Positions 5,564 to 56,473 are shown, counted from the stretch's first letter. The stretch is 64,000 nt of DNA from Candidatus Saccharimonadia bacterium (GCA_963717365.1 OY970327.1:799752-863751); one strand, 5' to 3'. Notes: generated by a model from the letters alone, not told the origin. Program-made: numbers and translations.

Positions 5564-5607
5564 GCAAGCATACCTATCTGTATTGATCATTCATTAAAAA
5601 GCTAACT

Positions 5608-5683
5608 TGGTGACCCGGGAGGGAGTCGAACCCCCAACACCCACCTTAGGACGGTGGTGTTCTATCCATTGAACTACCGGGCC
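5608..5683 (-). tRNA. tRNA-Arg (anticodon CCU)
   Basis: Minus-strand 76-nt sequence GGCCCGGTAGTTCAATGGATAGAACACCACCGTCCTAAGGTGGGTGTTGGGGGTTCGACTCCCTCCCGGGTCACCA. Folds as a cloverleaf: 7-bp acceptor stem, anticodon stem CCACC/GGTGG, loop GUCCUAA giving CCU, T-loop TTCGACT, encoded CCA. Confidence 0.85.
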
Positions 5684-5724
5684 AGACTAATGTCAGACTC
5701 CTAGGAAATCTGCTATTGAAACAT

Positions 5725-5776
5725 ATACTGCAATTTGTACCCTTTTGCAACGCAAACCGGGTACAAATTGCAGTAT
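5725..5776 (-). terminator. 18-bp perfect hairpin downstream of ndk (putative terminator/processing structure)
   Basis: ATACTGCAATTTGTACCC (5725-5742), 16-nt loop, GGGTACAAATTGCAGTAT (5759-5776). Begins 12 nt after the ndk stop and lies 42 nt upstream of the tRNA-Arg 5' end. No canonical U-run follows. Confidence 0.45.
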
Positions 5777-5787
5777 TGATTCAGTAA

Positions 5788-6294
5788 TTACTTTTTGCGG
5801 GGCTGGGTATATTTTTGGTGAACAGTTTGGTAATCGAAGATTTCTGCTTCGCTGAACCAGTGAGAGATTTCCAAGGCGGCTTCTTCCGGATCACCGGAAG
5901 CGTGGACGATATTGGCGATACCTAAATCTTCATTATCAGCATGCGAAAAGCTAACGTGCGCATAATCGCCCCGGATAGTGCCGGGTGCCGCGTTTTTTGG
6001 CTCGGTGGTACCAACCATCTTGCGCACCAGACTGACTGCCTCAACGCCTTCCAGCACAAACGCGATAACAGGACCTTCTTGCATCATGGCAAGCGTAACG
6101 TCAAAGGCTTTTTGGCCGCGCCTAGAAACCATTTTACCGATTGTTTCGTAGTGATGGTAAAAGTGGTCATAGCTCGGCTGCAGCATTTTGGTGGCGACGA
6201 TCTTTAGGCCGGTCCGCTCAAAACGGCTCAAAATTTCACCAACCAGGCCGCGCTGCACCGTATCAGGTTTCAAGATAATCAGCGTTCGTTCCAT
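5788..6294 (-). CDS. ndk: Nucleoside-diphosphate kinase
   Basis: 168 aa. MERTLIILKPDTVQRGLVGEILSRFERTGLKIVATKM matches the NDK N-terminus. Active-site region NIVHASGD (NxxH[GA]SD). Confidence 0.9.
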   Translation of the reverse strand: MERTLIILKPDTVQRGLVGEILSRFERTGLKIVATKMLQPSYDHFYHHYETIGKMVSRRGQKAFDVTLAMMQEGPVIAFVLEGVEAVSLVRKMVGTTEPKNAAPGTIRGDYAHVSFSHADNEDLGIANIVHASGDPEEAALEISHWFSEAEIFDYQTVHQKYTQPRKK

Positions 6295-6380
6295 ATTTTG
6301 TAATTTTCCTTAATTAGTTTAGTCTCTATTCTAACAGATAGAAAGAATGTACGGTACCGGGTTATAACAGTCTGGTGTAG

Positions 6381-6427
6381 CACTATACCTCGACTTCATT
6401 AAAATTTCATTAAGCGCAGGTATAGAA
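6381..6427. repeat. Conserved palindromic intergenic element, copy A
   Basis: CACTATACCTCGACTTCATTAAAATTTCATTAAGCGCAGGTATAGAAG. Shares ACTATACCT / TTCATTAAA / GGTATAG blocks with copies at 41850-41896 and 47180-47227. Outer arms TATACCT/AGGTATA. Lies 87 nt upstream of the ndk start (minus) and ~55 nt upstream of the xer start (plus). Confidence 0.8.
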
Positions 6428-6481
6428 GTAGGAAGTGCCTGCGTGCACAAAACAGTCAGGAATGTCGTACAATGTAACCAT

Positions 6482-7399
6482 ATGCGTGTTCAAGCCCTTA
6501 TTACCGACTTTCTGGAATATCTGGAAATCGAACAAAACCGCTCCCAAAGGACCATCTCAAATTACGACCATTACCTGACACGGCTGGTTGATTATGCCGG
6601 TGACATTGATATTAGTGATGTCACGCCTGAACTGATACGTAAATGGCGCCTGTGGCTAAACCGACTGGGCACCAATACCAGTGATGAATTGGGTAAAAAT
6701 ACGCAGAATTATCACCTGATTGCGCTACGCAGCTTTCTCAAGTTCTGTTCTAAACGCGGCATAACGGCAATTAGCGCCGATAAGATTGAATTGGCTCGCA
6801 CAAAACGCACACAGGTAACATTTTTATCTGACGAAGAAATTAAGCGACTGCTGAACCAGCCGGACTTACATGATGCTGCCGGTCTGCGCGACCGGGCAAT
6901 TCTGGAGTTGCTTTTTTCTAGCGGTCTGCGTGTTTCGGAATTAGTCGGCTTAAATAAGGATCATATAAACCTAAAGCGTCTGGAATTTATGGTACGTGGT
7001 AAGGGTCAGAAAGATCGACCGATTTTTATTAGTCCTGTGGCGGCAAGCTGGGTCACCCGCTATCTAGAAGCTCGTACCGATACTAGCCCTGCCCTGTTTG
7101 TCCGGCTAGGTGGTCATAAAAAAGCTGATACCAGCGGCAATTTTCTACGCCTGACTGTACGCAGCGTCCAACGTATTGTGGCGCATTACGCACTCCTGGC
7201 AGGAATTACTAAGAAAGTCAGTCCCCACTCGCTTCGACATAGTTTTGCGACCGACTTACTGATGAACGGAGCTGATCTGCGCAGTGTTCAGGTTATGCTC
7301 GGGCATAGCAATATTTCAACCACCCAGATTTATACTCACGTTACCGATCCTCATCTTAAAAAAGTTCACGAACAGTTTCATCGCAAAAACGATGACTGA
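6482..7399 (+). CDS. Tyrosine site-specific recombinase, XerC/XerD family
   Basis: C-terminal catalytic region HSLRHSFATDLLMNGADLRSVQVMLGHSNISTTQIYTHV (R..HxxR..Y). SAM-like N-terminal domain (FLEYLEIEQNRSQRTISNY). The track ORF opens at GTG 6443. ATG 6482 is preferred because it gives the usual N-terminus and TACAAT lies 8 nt upstream. Confidence 0.85.
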   Translation: MRVQALITDFLEYLEIEQNRSQRTISNYDHYLTRLVDYAGDIDISDVTPELIRKWRLWLNRLGTNTSDELGKNTQNYHLIALRSFLKFCSKRGITAISADKIELARTKRTQVTFLSDEEIKRLLNQPDLHDAAGLRDRAILELLFSSGLRVSELVGLNKDHINLKRLEFMVRGKGQKDRPIFISPVAASWVTRYLEARTDTSPALFVRLGGHKKADTSGNFLRLTVRSVQRIVAHYALLAGITKKVSPHSLRHSFATDLLMNGADLRSVQVMLGHSNISTTQIYTHVTDPHLKKVHEQFHRKNDD

Positions 7400-7401
7400 C
7401 G

Positions 7402-8604
7402 CTAGGCTTTCAGTAGTGTCAGGATCTTAAGTTTAGTTTTTGTGTAGGATTTTAGTTCTTTGCGACCAATCACTATGTAACGTATCCCTGCCGCTGTTTG
7501 GGCGGTTAATTTTGTAACTGCGGCTGCCAGTAAGAAAATGTAGGCGATCGGTACTAGTAAAGTTATTATGCCTTTGTCGGTCATACGCAAAGACGAGTCA
7601 CTCCATACCGCGATACCAAAAACTGCCAGTAAAATAAGCCATCCTACACTAAATAACAGGGTATTCTGAAACACTGCTGCTAAATAGACCAGATACGTAA
7701 ATGCCAGTATATCCAGTGCGGGCGCCGTAAACTTTACAGCTATCACTGCACGCTTTTTCCAGTGATAAACGGTATTTTTGCTAACTCGCTTAACGCTGCC
7801 TAGAACCTTGTATTCAGCAGATGCAACTTCATAAAATTGGTCAAATATATCTTCAAAAGATGCTGCTGGTTGTCTTATTACGGTCGCATCATGGGCGTAT
7901 GAGTACACAAGACCCTCGGGAACCTGGCGACTTATTTCTACTAGAACTGAGCGTCGAACCATCAAGCTTTGCGGTAGAAGATTTTCTGGCAAACCACCTC
8001 CCCACTTTCTTTTTTTTGAACCGATTAGCATATCAAAATAATGAGTCACTTGGGCTAAACTTAGTGGGCTCAAGGTCAACCGAGTATTAAGCTTAATGAC
8101 GTCCGCCTGAGTTGTTGCCGCGTTTTGTACCGCACTTTTAAGTGCTTGCGGATCAAGCGTCGACCCGGCATCTAAAAACAGTACCAATTCGCCCGTATAA
8201 AGCTTCTTATTAAGATCGTTCACGATGGCTTCCTGCAGTGTGGGCTTACGCTTTTTTAATACTGTAATAGCCTGTTTAGGATGTGCTGCGATAAACGCAT
8301 TAACTGTCTCATATGTTTGGTCGGTGGAAGCGTTATCTATCACCAGAATTTCATATTTACGGTATGAGCTTTTAATGATACCGGTTAGGCACTGTTGAAT
8401 AGTACTTGCATTGTTGTTGGCAAAAACTACTATGGTGAGAAGTGGTTTGATTCTGTACTTTTTTGCATGAGGATGAGCCTTAATTGCCTGTTTGTAGCGT
8501 ATGTCCCTGAGATCGTAGACATATCCCCTGACATGAACTATAAGTCCCCATAGCAATCGGCAGGCAAACCACGCCACGAATAATCTTCCAATCAACGGAT
8601 TCAT
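7402..8604 (-). CDS. Family-2 glycosyltransferase, membrane-integrated (processive synthase-like architecture)
   Basis: 400 aa. N-terminal TM, then a GT2 core (LTIVVFANNNASTIQQCLTGIIKSSYRKYEILVIDNASTDQT ... FLDAGS), then 3-4 C-terminal TM helices. Overlaps the sortase gene by 4 nt. Confidence 0.7.
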   Translation of the reverse strand: MNPLIGRLFVAWFACRLLWGLIVHVRGYVYDLRDIRYKQAIKAHPHAKKYRIKPLLTIVVFANNNASTIQQCLTGIIKSSYRKYEILVIDNASTDQTYETVNAFIAAHPKQAITVLKKRKPTLQEAIVNDLNKKLYTGELVLFLDAGSTLDPQALKSAVQNAATTQADVIKLNTRLTLSPLSLAQVTHYFDMLIGSKKRKWGGGLPENLLPQSLMVRRSVLVEISRQVPEGLVYSYAHDATVIRQPAASFEDIFDQFYEVASAEYKVLGSVKRVSKNTVYHWKKRAVIAVKFTAPALDILAFTYLVYLAAVFQNTLLFSVGWLILLAVFGIAVWSDSSLRMTDKGIITLLVPIAYIFLLAAAVTKLTAQTAAGIRYIVIGRKELKSYTKTKLKILTLLKA

Positions 8605-21508: not shown

Positions 21509-24500
21509 TTAAAGGATAGGTGGCAACGTAACGATATATTCGTATTTATTGCCCGTCTGGCTGCCTTGAGCGCGGAAGGAAGATGAGCTGCCGTATTGAC
21601 CCAGCAAGACCTCTGGTGTCATTCGGACGGCTTCGCCGGCCTTGGTTGGGTTTGGCGGGACCTGGGCAACGCCGTCAAAGGATTCCCGTGGCGTATAAAC
21701 CCGGGTACCTGCGACGATATTGTATTTTATGTCTCGCAACGTATATTTAACTCGGTAGAATTTGAGTTTATTGGCGGCTAGCAAACCGTTTATTTTCAGT
21801 TGCTCCTGAGAACATAGATTAGCTAGGATATCTCTGTCACCTGATGAAGCCAGATTAAACGGCGTGCCATTATTGGTACAGGTATGGATTTCGCCGTTCG
21901 CGCCGGCGGGAGTTGTTGACTGTGCAATATATATGCCGTCCAGCTGCTTTACGTTGTGAGAGATATAGATATTGCCTTTAACAATCAGCGTAAACGATGG
22001 AATTGAATCAATCGTAGCGCCGGTTGGACCGTAGGTAATATCACCGTTGATGATCACATTGCCTTCAACGTACATAGTATGTCGTCCGGTGAAGCCTGCC
22101 GCCCCGCCAAGCGTACCGCCACTGGCGTGATACGACTGATTGTTCGATTGTACCGAACTTACGCCGGCAACAGAACCCGGCCAACCCTGAGGTGTTTCTT
22201 TGGTCTCGCGCTTGATAGTTTCGTCAAAGTATTTTGGCTGGCCAGCAGGACGCAACACATTCACAAGTTTCAGCTCATCAGGGGTTTGCGGTTTAGGGGT
22301 GGCCGAGGGAGTTGTTGCACTTCTGAAGAAAGCGCTGGCAAAATCAATTGGAGTAGTAGCACTAATCACGGCAAATTCTCCGCCAGAACCAGCACCTTGT
22401 GCAGGATTCGCCATAAAGCCTGTGACCTTTCCACTTCCAGCCGTCGGACCGCCTGATATAACATCATTGCCGTAAGCGCGCATGAACGGCGTATTTACCA
22501 CTTCTCCACACATAATATCGTAGTTAGGCAAGCCAGGAGCAATAACCGTACTAGTACCAAGTACTTTTGCCGCTCCGGGATACGGCTGGCCATTCGTCCA
22601 CCCCTGGTTATAGTTAATATCCATACGGGCACAAAACTGGTCGCCTGGGTTCCAGGTATTAGCCGGCGCGGCTCTAAACTGGGTTGGCGCAGCCGCGTTA
22701 AAGTACGTTCTGTTCCAGACACGTTGCCAGGTGTTTGTCTGGTTAAGCGTAGACGCGGGCTGAGCAGTTTTTCCATTGTTATTTATAGAGTCATTATCAA
22801 GAGGTGGCCCGACTAAAACGGTATTTGTACTTGGCGCAGGATCATGCCTTAAGTAGTTAAGTTGGTTATTACCAGCTATGAGTATTGGCTTGTCGAAGTA
22901 CGCGACACCCAGCGGACCAGTTCCCAAGGTTGCTTCTACTCTTGTAGCATAGTTAATACTCAACGGATCTTCTGGATTGGGGTTAGGCGTCACGCTCGTC
23001 ACCCGAGGTTTTACCTGGAACGGCTGGAAGACGTCTATTGTGATGGAACAGGGCGCACCGATACCAAAGAGACCGTAATAATCAGGATAAACTTCTATGG
23101 TATATCTTCCGGCGCTAGGCGGTGCCGTAAAGGCAAAACTGCCCGTAACCGAAGAGCCGACTTCAACCTGCTGCCCAACCGCATAATATGCCGCGGCGCT
23201 AAACCCTGGAGAAGTGCCTCCCGCGGTAGTCAGTGCTAATGGCGCCGATCCAATCTGTGCATAGAGCGGATTATTATCACTGCCGCCGGTATTACTTAAT
23301 GTGTAATTGAGGTTGAAGCCCAGGCCAGCGGCAACACCTGCCGCAGTCGACGCTCCCGGAATAGCGCCCGACGTGGCTGTTATGGAATCCAGGCTACAGC
23401 TTGCCTCGTAGCAGGCTCCGACAGATGCCCGCACAGGCGTAGTAGTATCACCGTCGGTCTGATTTAGCCGCAAATCTCTAACAATCAAATCTGCCACCCA
23501 GCCATTGTTCGGCGCAGTTTCTGCAGGATAACTCAAAAATACGTTACCAGAACCTCTGCCTGAAGCAATTGTTAGCTTACCAGGATCATTATCCTGGTAT
23601 ATGTATACTTCGTAATAAACCCCTGTGCCTGTATCGTCTGGGTCAGAAATATTAATTGTTATGCCACGGCAAGTCATTGATGCGATAGAGTATGCGGGCA
23701 GATCCTCGGTACAGTCTTGATTTGTTGAAGTAGTTGAACTCAAAGTCTGAATCTCGGCCGTTGTATCCTCATTCCCAGCATAAATCTTAAGTATGAAGAC
23801 TACCCCCGCTGTCCTGCCATCATATCCACCACCTCCCACGGTGCCACCAGTTATTGGGACGCTATAGAGACCTTCTGTTGGGCCTGTAGCGCCCCTTCCA
23901 CCTGGAGTAACTTCATTATTGCCTGATACCGAGTTAACGAACATTTTATAACGCTTATTCTTATTGGTAGAATAACCATAGACCTTATCGCAGTCAAAAA
24001 GCATATTGCCGTTTGGAGTTCCTGTATCGGGCGGTGGCGGCTCATTATAGGTAATAGTAACAAAAGTAGTGTCGCCATTAGGGGGAGCCACTGTTCTAAC
24101 GTTCCAACCGTAGCCTTCGGCCGTACCAAAACCGGCACGAAGACCTCTGGCACCCGTTGGAACACCTACCCCCGTCACATCAAATTGTTGAAATGGATTT
24201 AGCTCAGGACTGGCTGCTCTTCTAGAGTTATCACAATCAAGTGCCCAGTTGGTTTGTCCGCCGCCAGTATCGGGAGAAGAACCTCCTGTACCGAGAACCG
24301 CATTAGTGCTGTCCGAGGCAACGCCACCTGTCAAAAAAGGACATCCACCAATTTGACTAAATGTTTGTTCTGCATAATGCTGATTATTGTTAAGGTTTAT
24401 AACGCCGCCAGGAGGTGTAGTGGTAGCACCGGAGGTAGTTACTTTAACTCGATTATCGTTAGATGGCTGATAGGAACTTGAGTCATAATCCCAGTACCGA

Positions 24501-24661
24501 GAGCTGACCACTAAACCCGCGTAGTCGTGTATATTACCACTCTGAACACCGCAAGATGCACTTGCGTTTCCGTGATCAAATAGGGATAATCCAAGCAAAC
24601 TTCCGCCTAGTAAAAATAAGAATATTGTCCACCGACTGGAGAGGTTGATTATCTTATTCAT
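21509..24661 (-). CDS. Very large secreted protein of unknown function (1050 aa), heading the pilus locus
   Basis: Signal peptide (WTIFLFLLGGSLLGLSLFDHGNASA). Gly/Thr/Asn/Pro-rich with scattered Cys pairs. C-terminal beta-helix-like segment (HTMYVEGNVIINGDITYGP...LIVKGNIYISHNV). No internal repeats and no recognised domain. Confidence 0.7.
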   Translation of the reverse strand: MNKIINLSSRWTIFLFLLGGSLLGLSLFDHGNASASCGVQSGNIHDYAGLVVSSRYWDYDSSSYQPSNDNRVKVTTSGATTTPPGGVINLNNNQHYAEQTFSQIGGCPFLTGGVASDSTNAVLGTGGSSPDTGGGQTNWALDCDNSRRAASPELNPFQQFDVTGVGVPTGARGLRAGFGTAEGYGWNVRTVAPPNGDTTFVTITYNEPPPPDTGTPNGNMLFDCDKVYGYSTNKNKRYKMFVNSVSGNNEVTPGGRGATGPTEGLYSVPITGGTVGGGGYDGRTAGVVFILKIYAGNEDTTAEIQTLSSTTSTNQDCTEDLPAYSIASMTCRGITINISDPDDTGTGVYYEVYIYQDNDPGKLTIASGRGSGNVFLSYPAETAPNNGWVADLIVRDLRLNQTDGDTTTPVRASVGACYEASCSLDSITATSGAIPGASTAAGVAAGLGFNLNYTLSNTGGSDNNPLYAQIGSAPLALTTAGGTSPGFSAAAYYAVGQQVEVGSSVTGSFAFTAPPSAGRYTIEVYPDYYGLFGIGAPCSITIDVFQPFQVKPRVTSVTPNPNPEDPLSINYATRVEATLGTGPLGVAYFDKPILIAGNNQLNYLRHDPAPSTNTVLVGPPLDNDSINNNGKTAQPASTLNQTNTWQRVWNRTYFNAAAPTQFRAAPANTWNPGDQFCARMDINYNQGWTNGQPYPGAAKVLGTSTVIAPGLPNYDIMCGEVVNTPFMRAYGNDVISGGPTAGSGKVTGFMANPAQGAGSGGEFAVISATTPIDFASAFFRSATTPSATPKPQTPDELKLVNVLRPAGQPKYFDETIKRETKETPQGWPGSVAGVSSVQSNNQSYHASGGTLGGAAGFTGRHTMYVEGNVIINGDITYGPTGATIDSIPSFTLIVKGNIYISHNVKQLDGIYIAQSTTPAGANGEIHTCTNNGTPFNLASSGDRDILANLCSQEQLKINGLLAANKLKFYRVKYTLRDIKYNIVAGTRVYTPRESFDGVAQVPPNPTKAGEAVRMTPEVLLGQYGSSSSFRAQGSQTGNKYEYIVTLPPIL

Positions 24662-24679: not shown

Positions 24680-25723
24680 TTAATAGCCTTTATACTCAGC
24701 TTTTAAGTTTTGCGTCTGTTTATCAAATTCTTCTTTTGCAACAGGCTGGCTCTTAGGTACATCTTCAAGGAGCACAAAATAATAATACATATCCACTGAT
24801 TCGGCTTTTGCGTCTGTTCCAACAAGTGCTTTTCCTGTCTGTACATCCAACAAAGATTGCTGTTTATGCGAAGTAATAAAGCTTGTTATCGGTTTATAAA
24901 ATATCTGCGTGTGCCAATTCACATTTGTTTTTTCGCCAAAACGTGTGCTGTGGTTAGAGGTACTTTTAATACTGTTGCCAAGCCGGGGGTCAGATAAGAT
25001 CTGCTTTAAGACTTCATCTGGCTTTATTTTATTGTCCTTAAGTTGCTGGTGATAAAAGTCAGCCTTCTCTTTGGCATAGTTCTTATCTTGCTCAACTAAC
25101 TTAGGGTCGTTTAGGCCATCAGGTCGATAAGCAGGTCCATATTGTAAATGTTGTCCAAAATAAAAATCAAAAGCGTATCCCTTATAGCCTGGAGCAGTTG
25201 TAATTCCGATGTAGTCGTCAACTACGGCTGCTTTAGCTATAAGGTTAAGCCAACTTTCTTTATTATGAGCAGAGTCTTGAGCATTGTCTGGGATTTCTTT
25301 TTGATAAGTGGCTATCTCTTCATCACTAGGTTTAATACCTAACTGCTCTGCCACATAAATCTTCTTTAACAATTCAAATAATAGCTTGGCCGATTCATTT
25401 TTATTAGTACCTCTTGCTTCTACCGGGTACTTAACGAGTTCATTTACTTCACTTTCGTGATACTTTTTGCCATCGATTGAAAAGATCACAGGATTGCCAG
25501 ATTTTCCAAATCTATCACCATTAAATAAAACCATACCTATAATTACTGCTATGACAACCGTGAATCCAGCTAAATACAAAAGACTTCTTTTGGAAAGCTT
25601 AGTAAGTTGACGTTGTTTAAAATTCAGTTTTATATTGCGCATTTTATCATTACATTGAGATACATTGCTTATGGTTTCTCTTCTAGCCATTATTGTACAA
25701 GTCTTGTGCTTATTCGTAAACAT
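24680..25723 (-). CDS. Membrane-anchored hypothetical protein with SurA-N-like chaperone segment
   Basis: 347 aa (alternative starts at M12 or M28). One TM helix (SLLYLAGFTVVIAVIIGMVLF). ESAKLLFELLKKIYVAEQLGIKPSDEEIATYQKE resembles the SurA-N/PpiD helical domain. Stops 18 nt before the 1050-aa gene start. Confidence 0.4.
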   Translation of the reverse strand: MFTNKHKTCTIMARRETISNVSQCNDKMRNIKLNFKQRQLTKLSKRSLLYLAGFTVVIAVIIGMVLFNGDRFGKSGNPVIFSIDGKKYHESEVNELVKYPVEARGTNKNESAKLLFELLKKIYVAEQLGIKPSDEEIATYQKEIPDNAQDSAHNKESWLNLIAKAAVVDDYIGITTAPGYKGYAFDFYFGQHLQYGPAYRPDGLNDPKLVEQDKNYAKEKADFYHQQLKDNKIKPDEVLKQILSDPRLGNSIKSTSNHSTRFGEKTNVNWHTQIFYKPITSFITSHKQQSLLDVQTGKALVGTDAKAESVDMYYYFVLLEDVPKSQPVAKEEFDKQTQNLKAEYKGY

Positions 25724-26440: not shown

Positions 26441-27097
26441 CTACCAGTCCAGCGAGATGTTCCTCATCATCTCCACCACCCGCTCATGGTCGGGCATAGC
26501 ATTATCGTCGTAATAGTGTTTGAGCGGAAAATCTGTTTCTATGACGCCCAAGTTGAAAAATTTGTGGGTCATTAGGTGCAACTTGTCGATTAATTCAGAG
26601 TTGCAGAGGGGCGTGGCGACTATCACCTCTTTAATGGAGATCGGTTTCAGAAAATCAGCAGCAACGTCGAGTGACAGGCCGTTTAGGATGCCGTCGGACA
26701 CGAGGATGATAGTGTGGCGTCGAAGTAACTTCTTATTAATGGCACCGTCTTTACCTACCACGCGGTTGAGCTTCTGAAAGGTCTGAAGACGCATTTGGTC
26801 TATCAGCGTACGTGAGTAAGTGGTTATTTCTTCCAGGTCGGCCGCCGATAGACTGTGGTTAAACGTAAATGTACCCGCCGAACTCATAGCGGCCAGCGGT
26901 TCAAGCTCGCGTGGCAATGTTACGTCTTCAATGGTGAGTAAAAAAAGCGAGCCGTGAAGCGCTTTGGCTATTTCCGCGCCAACCATTACCCCGCCTTCAC
27001 TTAAAGCGACCACGGCGCAGTTTTCAACGTTATAGTCGCGGCCCATTTCTTTTGCCAGGAGCTTCCCAGCCTCTGTTCGATTCTTAAAATACCGCAT
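26441..27097 (-). CDS. Phosphoribosyltransferase-family protein (uncharacterised PRT subgroup)
   Basis: 218 aa. MRYFKNRTEAGKLLAKEM...VVALSEGGVMVGAEIAKAL and a PRPP-loop-like HTIILVSDGILNGLS. Confidence 0.55.
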   Translation of the reverse strand: MRYFKNRTEAGKLLAKEMGRDYNVENCAVVALSEGGVMVGAEIAKALHGSLFLLTIEDVTLPRELEPLAAMSSAGTFTFNHSLSAADLEEITTYSRTLIDQMRLQTFQKLNRVVGKDGAINKKLLRRHTIILVSDGILNGLSLDVAADFLKPISIKEVIVATPLCNSELIDKLHLMTHKFFNLGVIETDFPLKHYYDDNAMPDHERVVEMMRNISLDW

Positions 27098-27099
27098 AT

Positions 27100-28023
27100 C
27101 TACTTATTGAGCTCGTGTCCGCCGAATTTGTTGCGCATTGCGGCTAGCATTTTAGTGGCAAAGTTCACTTCGCCTTTTTGTGAAGCCAAGCGAACGTCAA
27201 ATGACGTTTCAATCGCCGGCAATGGAATATTCATTTCTTTAGCAACCTCAATGGTCCAGCGGGCTTCGCCCGATTCGGCAACAAAGCCATCAATTCCTTC
27301 AAGTGTTGGATTCTCAGCGATAGCTGCCTGGCTCAGTTCATTAAGCCACGACGTTACCACGCTGCCATGCTGCCACACCTCGCCGGCGGCCGCCAAGTCT
27401 ATTTCGGCATACGGACCTTCTTTTAGCATACGGTAGCCCTCTGCCAAAGATTCCATCATGCCGTATTCAATGGCGTTGTGGACCATTTTTACATAGTGCC
27501 CGGAACCGCTCGGTCCAAAGTGCTGGTAAGCACCACGCGGTGCGGCCAGCGTTTTAAAGACCGATTCAATCTGGGCGAACACGTCCTGCCCGCCGCCGTC
27601 CTGGCCAGTGCCGCCCCCAATCATCATAGAAAAGCCATTCTCGTAGCCCCAGACTCCCCCACTGGTGCCGCTGTCTAATAAGACAGAGCCGGCTTTAGCA
27701 ACTTTTTCGGCACGCTGTTTAGTTAGGCGGAAATCCGAGTTACCACCATCAATGATAATGCTGCCTTCTGGGACTATCGCCAGCCATTCTTCAAGTTGTT
27801 CGTCAATCATATCGGCTGGTACCATAATCCATAGCACCACCTGGTCGCCTTCAAAGGCAGCGATCGCCGTCTGTTTTTCATAAGCGGCGGTAGCACCATA
27901 CTCTACTGCCTGATCAACTTTTTCATTGCTGCGATTATGCGCGATAACGTCGTGTCCGTCTTCTGCTAATTTGCGGGCGATCTGCATCCCCATTCGTCCC
28001 AATCCTGCAATTGCTATCTTCAT
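27100..28023 (-). CDS. gnd: 6-phosphogluconate dehydrogenase (decarboxylating), short YqeC-like form
   Basis: Start set at ATG 28023 (MKIAIAGLGRMGMQIARKL, Rossmann motif) with AAGGAG 7 nt upstream. 6PGDH signature GHYVKMVHNAIEYGMM. Confidence 0.8.
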   Translation of the reverse strand: MKIAIAGLGRMGMQIARKLAEDGHDVIAHNRSNEKVDQAVEYGATAAYEKQTAIAAFEGDQVVLWIMVPADMIDEQLEEWLAIVPEGSIIIDGGNSDFRLTKQRAEKVAKAGSVLLDSGTSGGVWGYENGFSMMIGGGTGQDGGGQDVFAQIESVFKTLAAPRGAYQHFGPSGSGHYVKMVHNAIEYGMMESLAEGYRMLKEGPYAEIDLAAAGEVWQHGSVVTSWLNELSQAAIAENPTLEGIDGFVAESGEARWTIEVAKEMNIPLPAIETSFDVRLASQKGEVNFATKMLAAMRNKFGGHELNK

Positions 28024-28088
28024 ATCAGTCTCCTTTTCTTTGACAAAGCTTTTGAGCCAGTTCAATACTCGCCAAGGTTCTATCTATT

Positions 28089-28466
28089 CTACCTGATTAA
28101 CTCTATCGTCAAAAATTTGCCGTACTTTTTGGCTAATGCGGCATCAAGAGTCATAAAAACAGTACACTTCTGCCGCAACGCGGCAGCAATTTGCAACGCG
28201 TCCTCAAAGTCTTTACCTTTATAATGAGCCAGTGCCCAATCAACGTCCGCGGCATCTACATCGATGACCGAACAACGCGTCACTACCCGCTCTACCTCGA
28301 GCACATCAAATTTGTGGGCTTCAGCCAGGTAAAACGCAGTGCTGACCGTTAACGTTGTAATGTAAAGCGGCTCATTGCCATATAGGTTAAGCGCGCGCAG
28401 TACAGTTTTGGCGCGCAACCGTTCTTCAACAAGCTCCATTACAATATTAGTGTCAAGCACCAGCAT
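28089..28466 (-). CDS. vapC: PIN-domain toxin (VapC-like)
   Basis: 125 aa. MLVLDTNIVMEL (first acidic residue), later acidic residues present (..DVDAADVD.., ..TLD). Follows a small antitoxin-like ORF after a 2-nt gap. Confidence 0.7.
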   Translation of the reverse strand: MLVLDTNIVMELVEERLRAKTVLRALNLYGNEPLYITTLTVSTAFYLAEAHKFDVLEVERVVTRCSVIDVDAADVDWALAHYKGKDFEDALQIAAALRQKCTVFMTLDAALAKKYGKFLTIELIR

Positions 28467-28468
28467 AA

Positions 28469-28756
28469 TTATTTCTTATAGCCAAATTTACGCTCCAGGT
28501 ATTCAAGCCTGGTACGTTTCATGAGTGCAACCGTATCTTCTTCTTTAGGGAATGGCGTCTTAACTGGCGGACGAGACTTAAGATACTGTATAAGCTCGCT
28601 ACCGCTGCCTGGCTTAGGCTTTTTAGAACGAGGCGTCCTGGAACTAGCCAGCTCACGCCGGTGTTCTGTAATAACTACTTCGTAGCCGCTGTTCAAAAGA
28701 CGAATGTATTCGTGCGGATTAGTTCGTAGCTGCTTAAGTGTAACTGAGGTTTTCAT
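28469..28756 (-). CDS. Antitoxin-like protein (Phd/YefM-like N-terminus) paired with VapC
   Basis: 95 aa. MKTSVTLKQLRTNPHEYIRLLNSGYEVVITEHRRELA resembles a Phd/YefM-type fold. Basic C-terminal tail. Position is directly upstream of the PIN gene. Confidence 0.5.
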   Translation of the reverse strand: MKTSVTLKQLRTNPHEYIRLLNSGYEVVITEHRRELASSRTPRSKKPKPGSGSELIQYLKSRPPVKTPFPKEEDTVALMKRTRLEYLERKFGYKK

Positions 28757-28763
28757 ATTGTTT

Positions 28764-28792
28764 ATACTACATTTATATATTCAAAAAGTCAA
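28764..28792 (-). promoter_or_regulatory. Sigma-70-type promoter TTGACT-17-TAGTAT, 7 nt from the antitoxin ATG (leaderless candidate)
   Basis: Minus strand: TTGACT (28792-28787), 17-nt spacer, TAGTAT (28769-28764), AAACAAT, ATG (28756). Confidence 0.55.
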
Positions 28793-28863
28793 CAAAAAGT
28801 GTAACTTTTAACAATAATTTAATCTTTTGAGCAACTTGTCACGAAATCCTCAATCAAGTACTT

Positions 28864-28943
28864 TTTAAAACTACACACCCCATACACACTGGACTAGTTA
28901 AGTAGTGTGTATGGCGCCGCGTATCCAGTGTGTAATTTTAAAA
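28864..28943. repeat. Nested palindrome built from four ACACAC(T) half-sites
   Basis: Inner 11-bp stem CCATACACACT (28880-28890) / AGTGTGTATGG (28904-28914). Outer arms TTTTAAAACTACACAC (28864-28879) / GTGTGTAATTTTAAAA (28928-28943) with one mismatch. Alternative pairing ACACACTGGA / TCCAGTGTGT. Confidence 0.8.
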
Positions 28944-28992
28944 ATAGATAAAAAGAAGACTGAATATAGTTGAAAGGGATGATTTACATACG

Positions 28993-29664
28993 CTATCGCG
29001 CGCCATCAAGAGGTGCCCAGCCAAACGGATTACCCAGGTCATGTAGACAGTCTTTGTTATTCGACATGCCATAGATAATCGCATAATCGTCAGGAACTTC
29101 CGGAGCCTCAATACATGCCTGAATAAGATTGACGCAGTCGCGATGGCTAAACCAGACCTGGCGCTCGGAATACGGGTGTTCCGGCGGCTTATCAGCCCGG
29201 TTCACCCCACCAAACCGCACACAGATTACTTTTAATTCCTTGGCATCGGCGTAGTAGCGGCCGAGCGCTTCCATCATGCATTTGCTGGCTCCATACGGGC
29301 TGTCGGGCACCGGCAGCACGTCTGGCTGCAGCAATGGCGCGCCAGTGTCGCGGCCGGCAAATTTGTCGGCATGTACCGAGCTGGCAATAATTACCCGCTT
29401 AACACCCGCCTCCTGGGCAGCCTGGTAAATATTGAAATTCTGGGTAATATTACCCGGATCCAGATTTTCGCTCAGCCACGTCTCGTGTTCGGAATCCCAA
29501 GCCAGGTGAACAATAACATCGTGGCCCCGTGCCATTTCCAAAAGCTGCTTATAGTCCTCAACATTGTGCCGGGGCAGATCAAAATCTGTTGTCTCATGTG
29601 GCAGACCATTTTTTAGAACCGTGCCGATTACCCCGCTGCTGCCCGTGATCAAGACTTTTTTCAT
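28993..29664 (-). CDS. NAD-dependent epimerase/dehydratase (short SDR-fold protein)
   Basis: 223 aa. MKKVLITGSSGVIGTVL (GxxGxxG) and catalytic PYGASKCMME (YxxxK). Confidence 0.7.
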   Translation of the reverse strand: MKKVLITGSSGVIGTVLKNGLPHETTDFDLPRHNVEDYKQLLEMARGHDVIVHLAWDSEHETWLSENLDPGNITQNFNIYQAAQEAGVKRVIIASSVHADKFAGRDTGAPLLQPDVLPVPDSPYGASKCMMEALGRYYADAKELKVICVRFGGVNRADKPPEHPYSERQVWFSHRDCVNLIQACIEAPEVPDDYAIIYGMSNNKDCLHDLGNPFGWAPLDGAR

Positions 29665-29715
29665 ACATAAAAGTATACGGTATGACCACTATCAATACTA
29701 CGGACTCCGAAACAG

Positions 29716-30411
29716 CTACTTATCGCCGTTTAGCCAGTCGGTGGCTTCTCTCAAGTCGGTGCGGGCCAACTCAAAACCATCGTCAATGGATTGTCGCCAA
29801 TCTTCTATATACGGAACTATCTCGGCGGCAGTTTTTTGATCCGTGAAGGCTGCGGTATCCACGCCAGTTTGGACTACTTCCCATAGATTTTCTTTGACGC
29901 CAGCGACGGTCTGATGAGCCCGTTCTGTTAACCACTCCGGAGTAACTTCGCCGATGGCAGCCAGCTGCTTAAGAGCCGCGCCCTGGCGCTCTGCATCACT
30001 CAGAACGGTTTGCAGTTTTTTGAGCCTGTCTGTCCTGCTGCACGCCGCATCGACATTTGGCCCTAGGTTTTGCAAATAACCATTGATTGTCTCGCCAAAT
30101 TCACCGATCAACTCCGCAAGTGTTGCCGGTTCAATTGGCTCAGCCGGTTCATCGAATTGCCCATCATCGCGCGCAACTGCTGGGCGCTGAGCATATACGG
30201 CTTCTAGATCTTGGCTAGCTCTATTGAAGGTATCCCCCAATTCTATTTTTATACCAGCTGCAACAACCCGCCCTATAACTGCATCTTTGTCTTCTTCTCT
30301 GCCGTGTAAGTTCGCTAAAGCTGCTGCAATTTGTGGCACATCACCACTCTCAGCCCACTGGGTTAATATTTCCGGACTTGGTACTTGGTTTGTGTTCATA
30401 GCTTCTTTCAT
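29716..30411 (-). CDS. Hypothetical acidic helical protein
   Basis: 231 aa. No TM helix or signal peptide, no recognised motif. Starts 8 nt after the stop of the 631-aa gene. Confidence 0.5.
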   Translation of the reverse strand: MKEAMNTNQVPSPEILTQWAESGDVPQIAAALANLHGREEDKDAVIGRVVAAGIKIELGDTFNRASQDLEAVYAQRPAVARDDGQFDEPAEPIEPATLAELIGEFGETINGYLQNLGPNVDAACSRTDRLKKLQTVLSDAERQGAALKQLAAIGEVTPEWLTERAHQTVAGVKENLWEVVQTGVDTAAFTDQKTAAEIVPYIEDWRQSIDDGFELARTDLREATDWLNGDK

Positions 30412-30419
30412 ATTATATT

Positions 30420-32315
30420 CTATTTTTTATTTCTTCTAATCTGACCGTCTTTTTCTATAACCACCGCCGGCTTAGAGTTACGGTAGGTCCGCACAATGTT
30501 GGTCAGCGGCGGCATCTTTACTTTTTCAGTAGGTGTACCGTCAGGCAAAGAGTCTAGTGTAGTTAATATACTTCTCATATTCGCGATGTTAGTCTGAAAA
30601 TCATAATCAACCGATGAGTGTGTGCCGGTAGTATGGGTGCCATAGACTGATCCCTCGGCAGTGTGCGCACGAAAGTATGATTCAACCGGCAGCCTAGCCG
30701 TTTCGTTATTCCCCCAATTGCCATTTCCAACTCCTAGCCCCTTTTCAAGGCGGTTTTCCGACGCGGCAATCAAGTTTACCCTGACACAGACAGCATACTT
30801 GCTGTAGGCTCTGCTGCTACTAATACTTCTATAACTACTCGACATCTGGGCGCCACTGATCGTCCAGTCATCCAATAAAATAATACGGACGTTTTCTGGC
30901 TCTTTAGTAATATCGCTAACTTCCTGGACGATCCTTCCCGAGTATTGTTCTAGTTCTCCGTCACTAAAAGTGGCTAGAATATTTTCAAACAAATAGGTGT
31001 CGCTTTTTCTTAATCCCTCAGACCTTGTTATAGCAAGCGGTACGCATATTTGGTTGTCTGGGTCACTCTCTAAGTAGTCTTTCCATAATTTTCCAAGCCC
31101 CTGTACGGCTTCGTCGTATTCTTTTTTACCAATGAAGGTTAGGTTTTCCAGCATACTCTTGGCTTGTATCATATATGTCTCGTAGTCATCGTTGGCTGCC
31201 ATTTTTGGATTGGTAGTGCAGTCCATCAAAAAATCATGCAGCTCTACCAAGCCTTGGTGTTCGGTTAGCTCTCTAATATCGGGATTTCCTAGATCATCAA
31301 ACGACATAGGGTTTGCACCGTAAGATGCAAGGTGCCGGAATGTATTAGTTCGGCTTTTGTCACGTATTTGCTCTTCAAATATTGGAGCGTCTTTGACAAA
31401 ATGTTGTTTGCCGTCAATCTCGGGATTAGCTATTTCTACTGTTTCAATGTGTGTCTCTGGGACATCATGAGTCTGCTTGCTTGCAATAAAGTCATCAAGC
31501 ATCTTTTCCATTTCGGGCGATTGGGATTCCGTTGGGGGAACAGTCTTCCATATGTTGAGTGCTTCTGGACTTGGCTTCCAGTTAAGTGGCGCAAATGGCT
31601 CCTGATAGACGGCCGGGGTACCTTTGACGGTCTTCATGACTTCATCAAGCAATACCTTGCCAGCATCTTTGGCGGCCGCGACTAGTTTTTTGTATTTGCC
31701 CTGTTCGGCGGCCGACGTATGAGATATTCCAAGATCAGCTTCAGGCGAATGCCAAAAACCCTCTTCTACTATCTGCATTGTGTCTGGATTGTCTGGATTG
31801 TCCACGCCATCAAGCCAATAATCATACGTACTTAGGGTGTTTTCTGATGACATGGGGAGGTTAGTCTTACGTTTGGCAGAGTTGAGCATAATAGAAGGAA
31901 TGTTCTCTAAATTTTTTCCAAGTATTAACGGTGAGTCGTACTGCTTGAAGTTATTTGCTGGGTAAAGCTTACTCTTCTTCAAAAAATTACCGTTCTTGTC
32001 ATGATAGTGGAGATCATTAGTTTCAGGTTTGCTAGAAGAGATGAAATGCTCGGGCATTTCGTCTTCATCAAAATTGAAGTTCTGGAGACTACCGTAAGAA
32101 GGCAATTCAGCCCCAGGAGACGGTGACATCTGGGACATATGTTGATTCATCATGCTAGAAGCATTCGGATTAAGTGTGGCGATGTGAACCTTTTTCCCCA
32201 TCATTGCTTCGGACGGCATTGGGACAAACTTAGGCACAATACTGCCAGAGGCCGTAACGACATGCTGGTCATGGATTGGTTCGAGCTTGTTACCGGGAAA
32301 GGATTCTGGGAGCAT
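30420..32315 (-). CDS. Large hypothetical cytoplasmic protein with C-terminal PRTase-like (PRPP-loop) motif
   Basis: 631 aa. No signal peptide. C-terminal third contains VRIILLDDWTISGAQM, which matches the type-I phosphoribosyltransferase PRPP-binding pattern (hydrophobic x4-DD-x2-[TS]G). The rest is unrecognised. Visibly AT-richer than its neighbours. Confidence 0.5.
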   Translation of the reverse strand: MLPESFPGNKLEPIHDQHVVTASGSIVPKFVPMPSEAMMGKKVHIATLNPNASSMMNQHMSQMSPSPGAELPSYGSLQNFNFDEDEMPEHFISSSKPETNDLHYHDKNGNFLKKSKLYPANNFKQYDSPLILGKNLENIPSIMLNSAKRKTNLPMSSENTLSTYDYWLDGVDNPDNPDTMQIVEEGFWHSPEADLGISHTSAAEQGKYKKLVAAAKDAGKVLLDEVMKTVKGTPAVYQEPFAPLNWKPSPEALNIWKTVPPTESQSPEMEKMLDDFIASKQTHDVPETHIETVEIANPEIDGKQHFVKDAPIFEEQIRDKSRTNTFRHLASYGANPMSFDDLGNPDIRELTEHQGLVELHDFLMDCTTNPKMAANDDYETYMIQAKSMLENLTFIGKKEYDEAVQGLGKLWKDYLESDPDNQICVPLAITRSEGLRKSDTYLFENILATFSDGELEQYSGRIVQEVSDITKEPENVRIILLDDWTISGAQMSSSYRSISSSRAYSKYAVCVRVNLIAASENRLEKGLGVGNGNWGNNETARLPVESYFRAHTAEGSVYGTHTTGTHSSVDYDFQTNIANMRSILTTLDSLPDGTPTEKVKMPPLTNIVRTYRNSKPAVVIEKDGQIRRNKK

Positions 32316-32493
32316 TGTTTTATTTTTAGTTTTTTATTTAATATCTTTAGAAGCTTATTGTAGCAAAAAAAATGACTTTTGTCAAGTTTAATATGGTGAG
32401 GTACTAACTGGTTCTATAATTTGATATATTAAAATATTTGCGCAAAGTAGTACCTTTAGGTATACTTTAAGTGTAACCTTAAGGAAAAATAGT

Positions 32494-32703
32494 ATGACAA
32501 TTATCGGTCTCAAAGAACTCCGGCAAAATGCCAGCCAAATTGCCGAACGCGCCCAAAAAGGCGAACGCTTCACTGTAGTAAAACGGTCCAAGCCTATGTT
32601 TACTATCGTACCGCCGGTGCCGCAAGATAATGGCCTTGAAGCCTGGACAGAAAAATACATTGAAGATAATAAGGAACTTCTTGTTTCGCTAGCCGGCAAA
32701 TAA
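32494..32703 (+). CDS. phd: Phd/YefM-type antitoxin
   Basis: 69 aa. MTIIGLKELRQNASQIAERAQKGERFTVVKRSKPMFTIVP. Stops 2 nt before the doc start. Confidence 0.65.
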   Translation: MTIIGLKELRQNASQIAERAQKGERFTVVKRSKPMFTIVPPVPQDNGLEAWTEKYIEDNKELLVSLAGK

Positions 32704-32705
32704 GT

Positions 32706-33092
32706 ATGAGTTCCATTAGCCCTGATGAAATCGTATTCATTCACGATCAGATTATTAAAAAAACGGGTGGCGGTTTGGGAGTGCGTGAACCCGGCCTATT
32801 GCTTGCCATCGCCGCCAAGCCACACGCTAATTTTGGAGGCGAAGACTTATATCCCACTGTCTTTCTAAAGGCAGCCGCCCTGTATGAAGCGCTTTGTAAC
32901 TATCATATATTTATTGATGGCAATAAACGCTGCGGCATCGCCGTATGCGAGTATTTTCTACATAAAAACAATTACCTGCTTCAAGCTAGTAGGCAGCAAA
33001 AGGAAGAATTTACCCTTTTCATAGCGACCACCAATCCCAATCTTGAAGAAGTTGCAGCCTGGCTCCAAAAGCAAAGCAAGGAGGATAAATGA
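32706..33092 (+). CDS. doc: Doc (death-on-curing) Fic-fold toxin kinase
   Basis: 128 aa. Fic/Doc motif HIFIDGNKRCG (HxFx[DN][GA]NKR). N-terminal IHDQIIKKTGG. Confidence 0.85.
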   Translation: MSSISPDEIVFIHDQIIKKTGGGLGVREPGLLLAIAAKPHANFGGEDLYPTVFLKAAALYEALCNYHIFIDGNKRCGIAVCEYFLHKNNYLLQASRQQKEEFTLFIATTNPNLEEVAAWLQKQSKEDK

Positions 33093-51022: not shown

Positions 51023-51541
51023 TTAATTTCTAAGGTTTTGCTCGTAGTCCTCGTCATAATAGTTGTAGTCGTAATCATTATCACGGGGGTTAAATTCGGC
51101 GGTATAGGTATAACAGACATTTCCCTTTGGATGCTCTTCTGGTATATCTCCGTAATCAGTAAGTTTCATGGTTTGCATACCCTTTTTACCCCTGTAAGAA
51201 AGTCGTTCGTTTTTGTATGTTACACAGAGTTTGTAGCCATTATCGGCAACCCTCGTGTACGTCACTTTACTAGTATCGATCTCGTCATAATAGCCGTCAT
51301 CGTAATAACTGTCTTTGTTATCATTTGTTGGTTTAATTCCATCCAGAGTGCGGGGGAATGTTTCGTCATTAGTATATTTATCATAAAGCAGCACAGAAAT
51401 CCGAGAAACATTCTGGCTCGTTTTATTGTCTTCCTTGTTTCGGTTGCTCATTACCTGAACAAAAGTAATAAGAATCAAGCTGAAGGCCCATAGAACGATA
51501 AAGAAAATTACTTTACGGTCTTTGAAGTTAACTCTTTTCAT
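51023..51541 (-). CDS. Hypothetical membrane-anchored Tyr/Asp/Asn-rich protein
   Basis: 172 aa. TM helix (VIFFIVLWAFSLILITFVQV). Ectodomain rich in Y/D/N (YYDDGYYDEID..., NDYDYNYYDEDYEQN). Confidence 0.5.
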   Translation of the reverse strand: MKRVNFKDRKVIFFIVLWAFSLILITFVQVMSNRNKEDNKTSQNVSRISVLLYDKYTNDETFPRTLDGIKPTNDNKDSYYDDGYYDEIDTSKVTYTRVADNGYKLCVTYKNERLSYRGKKGMQTMKLTDYGDIPEEHPKGNVCYTYTAEFNPRDNDYDYNYYDEDYEQNLRN

Positions 51542-55786: not shown

Positions 55787-56473
55787 GTGTCCGCTATAAA
55801 GTATCTTTCACCCCTAACTGAGACTCCTATTAAAGGCAGCGTGAGTAGTAGCTATTTTTATCGTATGCTATCTCCTCAGGCATTGAAGCTTTCTGCATCA
55901 TATACAGCAGAAGAGCATAATACTCTCAATAACTGTTTTCGTATTCATCCAGAAACAAAAAAAATGAATTTTGTTGCTGTTGGCGGAGGCGAACTTTGGG
56001 GCCTAAGGCAAGCACGAATGCACACCAAACACTATACGTGCATAGAACCTCTAGCGGATATTTATATGAACGATTCCGTCAGGTATTTAGTAGAACAGCT
56101 CGATGACATATCCTTTATCCCAAAGCGTTTTAAAGACGTCACACCAGCTGATTTGCCTCCAGGTAATTCGTTGTTTATGTTTTTGTTTAATATACTAGCC
56201 TATCTTGAAGAACCAATTGAATCAATAAACGCAGTTATTAAACCGGGCGACATTCTATTCATAACTACTTGGGCTAACACCGAGCAAGCAAAGCAAGTCC
56301 GTACTAGCTATTTTGACTACTTAAATTCATTTGAAGAACATATTGGCATAGATCCAAGTGAGAGTATTGGATTGTGTCATTTTGATAGCTTCCCCTTTGA
56401 TCAACTACACCATTTCAAAAGATCTGAGCGCATTAAAGAAATTATTACTGATACATTGATTATCTATACTTAG
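55787..56473 (+). CDS. Class-I SAM-methyltransferase-like (Rossmann-fold) protein, function unknown
   Basis: 228 aa (GTG start; alternative ATG at 55865). MNFVAVGGGE (motif I-like), CIEP (motif II-like), LFMFLFNILAYLEEP, IKPGDILFITT (post-III-like). Assignment is tentative. Confidence 0.4.
   Translation: MSAIKYLSPLTETPIKGSVSSSYFYRMLSPQALKLSASYTAEEHNTLNNCFRIHPETKKMNFVAVGGGELWGLRQARMHTKHYTCIEPLADIYMNDSVRYLVEQLDDISFIPKRFKDVTPADLPPGNSLFMFLFNILAYLEEPIESINAVIKPGDILFITTWANTEQAKQVRTSYFDYLNSFEEHIGIDPSESIGLCHFDSFPFDQLHHFKRSERIKEIITDTLIIYT

Follow-up and report, generated by a model that had tools for sequence, protein, structure and literature searches.

A conserved two-gene module of Saccharibacteria joining a protein of predicted phosphoribosyltransferase fold to an acidic partner

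The subject of this work is a pair of neighboring genes, encoding proteins of 631 and 231 amino acids (aa), in a stretch of 64,000 nucleotides from Candidatus Saccharimonadia bacterium (GCA_963717365.1 OY970327.1:799752-863751). The whole stretch is referred to as the window, and all coordinates are counted from its first letter. The two genes were found to form a conserved two-gene module, the larger product of which possesses a C-terminal module that is confidently predicted to adopt a divergent type I phosphoribosyltransferase (PRTase) fold, as judged from structural modeling. In the loci recovered, this enzyme family is restricted to Saccharibacteria, and in the window the pair forms, together with a putative promoter, a cassette of 2741 bp (29686-32426, minus strand) that has no counterpart at the homologous site of a close relative. 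A nucleotide-related accessory enzyme system, or one related to phosphoribosyl pyrophosphate (PRPP), is plausible. The explanation that we favor, tentatively and at somewhat less than an even chance, is that of an enzyme that uses PRPP, that its acidic partner keeps in check or escorts, and that serves conflict, host interaction, or control of the nucleotide pool.

The conserved C-terminal module, putatively catalytic, comprises residues 291 to 631 of the larger protein (30420-31445, minus strand, including the stop codon) and contains the PRPP-binding loop VRIILLDDWTISGAQM (residues 476 to 491; 30843-30890, minus strand). An earlier note on this DNA had recognized the type I PRTase pattern in this loop, and the assignment holds: residues D482, D483, and G488 are invariant among 12 divergent homologs and are part of the 23 invariant columns of the C-terminal domain (alignment A2). 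An AlphaFold2 (AF2) model of residues 285 to 631 (347 aa), built on 12 sequences, reached a predicted local distance difference test (pLDDT) score of 83.6 and a predicted template modeling (pTM) score of 0.85, and the motif takes the form of a strand (192-198 in the model), a loop, and a helix (205-215). When this model was compared with the PDB using Foldseek, the top 46 matches were all type I PRTases (HGPRT, UPRT, and PyrR), with probabilities of 0.44 to 0.99, mostly above 0.7, and template modeling scores, normalized to the target, of 0.32 to 0.46. The best structural matches were 3ohp, 5knr, and 1yfz, with probabilities of 0.98 to 0.99, and in BFVD the model was matched by giant-virus proteins with PRTase domains. 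The module is modeled with the core alpha/beta fold and PRPP-loop geometry of HGPRT, UPRT, and PyrR, to which it adds family-specific elaborations on the N- and C-terminal sides, but it shares only 8 to 15% identity with them, large segments peculiar to the family stand in place of their substrate "hood," and they have no counterpart of its long tail or of the partner protein.

Profile searches returned weak but recurrent matches to PRTases. The sole Pfam family matched by the window protein is PF24390 (PRTase-CE), with an E-value of 2.9e-4 and 21.3 bits versus a gathering threshold of 27. Weak matches to this family were seen for 4 of the 12 members and then for 6 of 10 further members (best E-value, 7.7e-6), and the precomputed PF24390 match of the close homolog P0002 is graded only as "weak." The PRTase_III-A profile of PADLOC was matched by the window protein with an E-value of 8.7e-5 and by 5 of the 12 members at an E-value of ≤0.01 (best, 3.6e-6). 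The nearest profiles are those of conflict-type PRTases and not the generic PF00156 (Pribosyltran), to which the window protein had no match at an E-value of ≤0.1 and 11 homologs had none at ≤0.01. No PDB entry was retrieved in sequence searches with the profiles of the enzyme and of the partner or with the N-terminal tail. That the D482/D483 loop is conserved and that many polar positions are invariant speaks for an active PRPP-binding enzyme, and we infer from the sequence that PRPP-dependent phosphoribosyl transfer may be its reaction. The N-terminal tail (residues 1 to 290; 31446-32315, minus strand) is rich in P, S, K, E, and N; it has no Pfam match and no homolog outside the 631-aa protein, and the length of the equivalent region differs among family members, from less than 50 to about 500 aa (alignment A1). 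No extra Pfam domains, including MuF and polyvalent-protein domains, were detected in 10 long family members.

A word-seeded search with the enzyme returned 12 homologs, matching over the C-terminal half only, and an HMMER search of 1.84 billion representatives returned 557 clusters (50% identity) at an E-value of ≤1e-3, 344 of them at ≤1e-30; the length of the proteins ranges from 336 to 2240 aa among the best 150 HMMER matches. A scan of one genome per species yielded 47 loci, all but four of which are labeled Saccharibacteria, Saccharimonadales, Nanosynbacter, or Saccharimonas. The exceptions are L040 (Candidatus Binatia), L044 (Acidobacteriota), and two loci labeled "bacterium" only. L040 and L044 are almost certainly mis-binned because they are syntenic with Saccharibacteria loci, and housekeeping proteins of L044 are up to 99% identical to those of L008 and L009; the best matches of the two "bacterium" loci are found among Saccharibacteria loci. 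No copies of the enzyme family were found in phage, plasmid, and viral-contig collections, a search of PHROGs gave no matches, and all loci are chromosomal Saccharibacteria contexts. The enzymes of L044 and L009 are 62% identical, versus 95 to 99% for the housekeeping proteins compared; hypervariability of the enzyme was considered and rejected in favor of faster drift only, since the DNA of these two loci is just 80% identical.

Pairing was counted over 51 non-redundant loci. In 41 of these the enzyme is accompanied by a homolog of the partner, as identified with jackhmmer from the window 231-aa protein, which agrees with the proposal of the earlier note that the two genes constitute one system. 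In most of the 51 loci, the same-strand gene directly 3' of the enzyme gene encodes an acidic protein of about 205 to 250 aa; the partner gene is located two genes upstream in two giant-fusion loci and within a paralog array in L004. The two genes as called overlap by 4 to 19 nt in L001, L003, and L010, and in the window the stop codon of the 631-aa gene is separated from the start codon of the 231-aa gene by the 8-nt spacer AATATAAT. A tight co-directional pair with a small, non-catalytic second gene is the layout expected of a toxin-antitoxin (TA) or toxin-immunity pair. Judged from its sequence, the partner (29716-30411, minus strand) is non-catalytic and evolves fast; it is predicted to be all-helical and is acidic, with an isoelectric point (pI) of 4.36, and values throughout the partner family are between 4.3 and 5.3. 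Its identity between the window and L001 amounts to 25%, compared with 47% for the enzyme domain and 56 to 69% for housekeeping proteins, and the partner family alignment (A3) contains no invariant residue. A word-seeded search from the 231-aa protein alone returned only itself, and a profile search identified 131 homologs, none of which is functionally named or has a Pfam domain; the partner was matched neither in Pfam nor in the defense library. Its AF2 model is all helix but is unreliable (pLDDT, 46).

The boundaries of the cassette emerge from the comparison with a 2.6-kb contig, L060 (SRR22388172), the sole close relative reached, which was accessed via an SDR (short-chain dehydrogenase/reductase) cluster-mate at at least 90% identity; exact-sequence look-ups with the 631-aa protein and with YchF yielded no contig, and the 90% clusters of these two proteins have one member each. 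The gene order of L060 is Doc-Phd, about 93 nt, SDR, VapB-PIN, and gnd. Positions 1-710 of L060 align with window positions 33138-32427 at 89.5% identity, and positions 718-1403 align with 29685-29000 at 81.6% identity (blastn), so that 2741 bp of the window correspond to about 8 nt in L060, and the interval consists exactly of the promoter and the 631-aa and 231-aa genes. The indel is either a gain in the window or a loss in L060. At its borders there is no target-site duplication and no direct or terminal inverted repeat, the only feature being a 3-nt ATA microhomology, and no tRNA or recombinase gene was found near the cassette. The putative sigma-70-like promoter (32357-32385, minus strand), TTGACA-17-TGcTACAAT, was identified by a consensus scan and is a consensus match only; it has 11 of 12 matches and an extended -10 element and lies about 40 nt upstream of the ATG of the 631-aa gene, within the cassette.

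The same comparison revises the proposal that this is an accessory segment bracketed, and perhaps stabilized, by two TA modules and including an SDR gene. The SDR gene lies outside the indel, and because it and both TA pairs are present in the cassette-free L060, they are neighbors and not parts of the module. The accessory nature of the segment is borne out insofar as it is absent from the L060 site and its sites vary among Saccharibacteria, but its composition is native. Likewise, the 631-aa gene, which had been described as AT-richer than its surroundings, is so only with respect to the two adjacent genes (GC content, 0.50 and 0.53); against 63 window genes its GC content of 0.446 corresponds to a z score of -0.4, its GC content at third codon positions corresponds to a z score of +0.2, and its codon-usage distance is low. 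No genomic-island signs (deviant composition, integrase or tRNA site, or flanking repeats) were found at the cassette. The window shares the gene order of RNase J, FtsK, S6, SSB, S18, EF-P, and a TlyA/FtsJ-type methyltransferase with S. epibionticum ML1 and with L001, and the genome of the window is that of a Saccharibacterium. In L001, which contains the closest homolog, the pair is located upstream of ftsK, a site that is occupied by a different gene in the window. The window pair is about 10 kb away from the ftsK-upstream site, in a 10.6-kb stretch that has no L001 counterpart and that falls between the genes of L001 for an FtsJ-domain methyltransferase and a 217-aa PRTase. In the supplementary tables for S. 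epibionticum ML1, no PRTase-like hypothetical gene is listed upstream of ftsK, between rpmE and rpsB, or beside groES. The module is thus conserved across the lineage, yet, as the indel and the differing sites indicate, movable and dispensable at a given site.

The module occurs in a number of variants. A gene for a BtpA-like TIM-barrel protein is found before or after the pair in nine loci, and a gene for a NADAR N-glycosidase is found beside it in four. Oral genomes of the Nanosynbacter type encode, directly upstream, two acidic proteins that lack Pfam domains (about 610 to 680 and about 140 aa), in same-strand, overlapping genes (L019 to L049, at about 5300-7770 in locus coordinates), with rpsF-ssb-rpsR downstream of the module, which suggests that these genomes carry a four-gene operon. 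Homology of these upstream proteins of about 610 and 140 aa to the N-terminal tails found elsewhere was tested, and they are not homologous. A long-form subtype of about 870 to 925 aa is encoded just upstream of rpsB-tsf and a few genes downstream of prfA-rpmE, and is followed by a gene whose product is acidic and about 115 aa long. Downstream of prfA-rpmE is also the array of L004 (GCA_023262335.1, JALRBE010000022.1; 3171-15026), in which seven tandem enzyme paralogs, with catalytic domains that are 39 to 59% identical, are accompanied by two partner genes, which are 42% identical, and by a single BtpA-like gene. Giant proteins of 2240 aa (L056, 7923-14645) and 1894 aa (L040, 7309-12993) have the PRTase-like domain at the N terminus, followed by more than 1500 aa that are rich in S, T, P, A, and G, of low complexity, partly repetitive, and without an evident Pfam-type domain; the partner and BtpA-like genes are directly upstream.

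In the mechanism that we propose, the 631-aa enzyme would bind PRPP via its C-terminal module and would either transfer the phosphoribose to an acceptor or simply consume PRPP. The acidic partner would bind the enzyme stoichiometrically and act as an inhibitor, regulator, or chaperone, in the manner of an immunity protein or antitoxin, and a NADAR or BtpA-like enzyme, where added, could process a phosphoribosyl-N-glycoside product. A role in conflict, in the interaction of epibiont and host, or in controlling the pool of PRPP and nucleotides would be more likely than one in routine base salvage. The variable tails, the old paralog array, the giant fusions, the indel, and the differing genomic positions are all traits unusual for a salvage enzyme.

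Several observations weigh against this explanation. Every match of the enzyme to a named PRTase family falls under the curated threshold of that family, and because the Foldseek alignments span only about 150 of the 347 modeled residues, about half of the conserved module has no known structural counterpart. Since the partner model is unusable, gene order is what points to complex formation, and the ratio of seven enzymes to two partners in L004 is a poor fit to a strict one-to-one logic of toxin and antidote. Composition and hydropathy gave no transmembrane or hydrophobic segment and no signal peptide in family members. Furthermore, within sublineages the module occupies fixed sites beside rpsF-ssb-rpsR or rpsB-tsf, and these conserved positions, together with the native composition, fit a vertically inherited, ordinary cellular function.

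A narrower version of the favored explanation is a host- or competitor-directed effector that is exported to the Actinobacteria host, for example through the Patescibacteria type IV secretion system or by another Sec-independent route, and alters the PRPP and nucleotide pool of that host, with the acidic partner serving as chaperone or self-immunity protein. Such a role would be in keeping with the variable low-complexity tails, giant fusions, and old paralog arrays, with the small acidic helical protein encoded next door, and with the variable presence of the module between relatives. In addition, 5 of 158 members have a DWExELL peptide in their variable tails, versus 0.1 expected from shuffling, and this peptide may be a docking motif; it is present in P0013 (residues 18 and 882), P0017, P0040, P0056, and P0144 and not in the window protein. 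Finally, the family is confined to obligate epibionts that depend on their hosts for nucleotides (PMC10633639). However, no secretion signal, known translocation domain, or linkage to secretion genes was found in the loci examined, the catalytic domain is N-terminal in the giant proteins, unlike in typical polymorphic toxins, and the enzyme-to-partner ratio of L004 again fits poorly, so that this version appears doubtful. We regard as similarly doubtful the more general proposition that Saccharibacteria possess lineage-specific PRTase-fold effectors, each with an acidic inhibitor or chaperone, that consume PRPP or phosphoribosylate a target in conflicts between epibiont and host or competitor. 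If this proposition were true, the family would represent a PRTase system of the conflict type that is separate from retrons and from the polyvalent proteins of phages and conjugative elements. Its diversity would stem from the variable tails, the paralog arrays, and the fusions to giant proteins, and its gain or loss would take place as a small cassette with a promoter of its own.

Another possibility is ordinary metabolism, in which a lineage-specific salvage or biosynthetic PRTase, with the acidic protein as regulatory subunit, would act on a host-derived nucleobase or cofactor precursor and work together with ribose-phosphate enzymes. Saccharibacteria are not known to synthesize nucleotides de novo. 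The catalytic module is very strongly conserved in environmental as well as oral Saccharibacteria, its composition is native, its neighbors are housekeeping genes, and the linked BtpA-like and NADAR proteins, like the SDR and gnd products of the window, all act on sugar-phosphate or ribosyl compounds. However, the pair is absent at the L060 site and at three syntenic sites of S. epibionticum ML1, and long disordered tails, giant fusions, and paralog arrays would be unusual for salvage enzymes. The generic PRTase model of Pfam gave no match while the conflict-type models did, and a typical regulatory subunit would not be expected to evolve as fast as the partner does. On balance, we consider this explanation unlikely.

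The earlier note had also raised anti-phage defense, in the form of a PRTase-like abortive-infection effector that would deplete PRPP or modify nucleotides and be restrained by the 231-aa protein. There is a precedent in Retron-Eco11 (type III-A3), whose PRTase effector is held inactive by partner components and, once activated, lowers PRPP and causes abortive infection (PMC12746101). The effectors of type III-A retrons give the best, although weak, match of the family in the defense library, and both are divergent PRTase folds with a DD PRPP loop. The weak matches to the retron III-A and PRTase-CE profiles, the presence or absence of the cassette between close relatives, the TA modules nearby, and the NADAR third genes, which resemble the anti-phage NADAR family NF053876 below threshold, could likewise be taken as signs of defense. 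However, PADLOC, one of the checks that had been suggested, matched no complete system, and the 231-aa protein has no match to a defense model. No reverse transcriptase was present among the identified window neighbors or the conserved neighbor clusters, and no msr/msd noncoding RNA was found, an Rfam search of the whole window at gathering thresholds returning one tRNA at 5.6 kb. In contrast to retron III-A, the window partner is an acidic helical protein, and the enzyme family, which has some 190 additional conserved residues as well as a long tail of variable sequence, was found on Saccharibacteria chromosomes only. The family was recovered from Saccharibacteria only and from none of the phage, plasmid, and viral collections, and many genomes place the pair beside ribosomal-protein operons and not in defense islands, which is unlike typical horizontally spread defense systems. 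Both TA pairs are also kept in the cassette-free L060. On balance, defense appears distinctly improbable.

Two further systems show partial likeness. We take PF24390 to comprise the PRTases that Iyer et al. 2017 described in polyvalent proteins of phages and conjugative elements, and we assume that this is what "CE" stands for; the string "PRTase-CE" was not found in our literature search. The role of the polyvalent-protein PRTases has been described as enigmatic, possibly in nucleotide production or sensing during DNA entry (PMC5512222). The window family shares with them the DD motif, its invariant R461, between strands 2 and 3, may be equivalent to the conserved Arg of that group, and some of its members are fused into very large proteins. 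Unlike that group, its matches are sub-threshold, it does not occur in phage, plasmid, or viral contigs, and it has a dedicated partner gene. The second system is DarT-NADAR, together with similar TA pairs whose glycohydrolase undoes a ribosyl modification. The four loci in which a NADAR N-glycosidase gene follows the module are reminiscent of it, whereas the window cassette has no NADAR gene and a PRTase would take the place of the ADP-ribosyltransferase as modifying enzyme. N-ribosyl and phosphoribosyl linkages are cleaved by NADAR enzymes (PMC9503650), and a PRTase forms bonds of this type, so that the gene linkage in these four loci hints at a make-and-break pair.

A non-catalytic PRTase fold, acting like ComFC, PyrR, or PurR as a PRPP or nucleotide sensor or as a nucleic-acid binder, for example in DNA uptake, deserves very little credence: such folds have repeatedly been reused in this way (Iyer et al. 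2017, PMC5512222), the acidic partner could mimic nucleic acid, and Saccharibacteria are naturally competent (PMC10633639), but the invariance of the DD motif and of many polar residues is what an active site would show, no zinc ribbon, helicase, or DNA-binding domain is present, and no linkage to com genes was seen in the loci.

The PRTase fold and the theme of a divergent PRTase with a partner are already known. New are the enzyme family, its acidic partner, the restriction to Saccharibacteria, and the cassette behavior, of which no description was found in the libraries and literature searched; these sources contained no functional name for any member of the enzyme family, which also has no dedicated Pfam family. 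Saccharibacteria (TM7) have very small genomes, in which most lineage-specific genes lack an assigned function. Because the nucleotides of these bacteria must come from hosts, a diversified, partnered, and variably present PRPP-using enzyme is a candidate, and one open to testing, for a role in manipulating the host or controlling the nucleotide pool. Even as a plain salvage enzyme, it would close a gap in the metabolism of the candidate phyla radiation.

The gene calls of the earlier note were accurate throughout, with all seven open reading frames (ORFs) found at the positions and on the strands given and with the 8-nt gap confirmed. Both flanking type II TA pairs are genuine, and in each the intergenic gap is 2 nt. 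The VapBC-like pair (28089-28756, minus strand) consists of a PIN toxin (28089-28466; E-value, 1.4e-12) and a VapB-like antitoxin of 95 aa (28469-28756), which has only a sub-threshold Phd/YefM match (18.5 bits versus a cut-off of 29.8). In the Phd-Doc pair (32494-33092, plus strand), Phd scores above its cut-off, with 31.5 bits, and Doc matches Fic/DOC with an E-value of 8.8e-15 and TIGR01550 with an E-value of 6.6e-14. The stop codon of doc overlaps the start of ychF by 4 nt (33089-33092), and the same adjacency is seen in L060. Due to this overlap, phd, doc, and ychF look co-transcribed, which is an unusual site for a TA pair. A 118-aa ORF antisense to phd (32388-32744, minus strand), which overlaps the upstream region of the cassette, is of low GC content, has no search support, and looks spurious.

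The SDR-like gene (28993-29664, minus strand) had also been assigned correctly: its product matches PF01370 (E-value, 2.1e-13), the NCBIfam model Azf (1.9e-31, below the cut-off), and PDB entry 3rft (4.4e-20) and most resembles Azf-type NAD-dependent glucose-6-phosphate dehydrogenase and uronate dehydrogenase. A metagenome scan with this protein returned only a marginal match of 32 residues. The gene keeps 21 nt of its own upstream region and is now probably read through from the putative cassette promoter. It probably belongs with the nearby gnd-like gene (27100-28065, minus strand), and together with this gnd-like 6-phosphogluconate dehydrogenase it could provide an unconventional oxidative branch of the pentose-phosphate pathway. 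Between the SDR and gnd-like genes lies the VapBC pair, both in the window and in L060.

Elsewhere in the window, the real low-GC outliers are 24680-25723, 51023-51541, 55787-56473, and 58078-59142, with GC contents of 0.36 to 0.38 and z scores of about -2.1 to -2.5. The first of these is a 347-aa gene, for which, as for the adjoining 1050-aa ORF (21509-24661), there was no Pfam match. A separate 218-aa phosphoribosyltransferase of the PF00156 family is encoded at 26441-27097 (minus strand), and its L001 ortholog is 44% identical. An hhalign comparison of the enzyme family with this protein was not significant (probability, 0.3), though the PRPP loops were aligned. By length and PRTase-like annotation only, the 218-aa protein appears to correspond to SEML1_0167 (K07100), which was scored NE/GD/GD in the Tn-seq table of S. 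epibionticum (PMC10633639 supplement).

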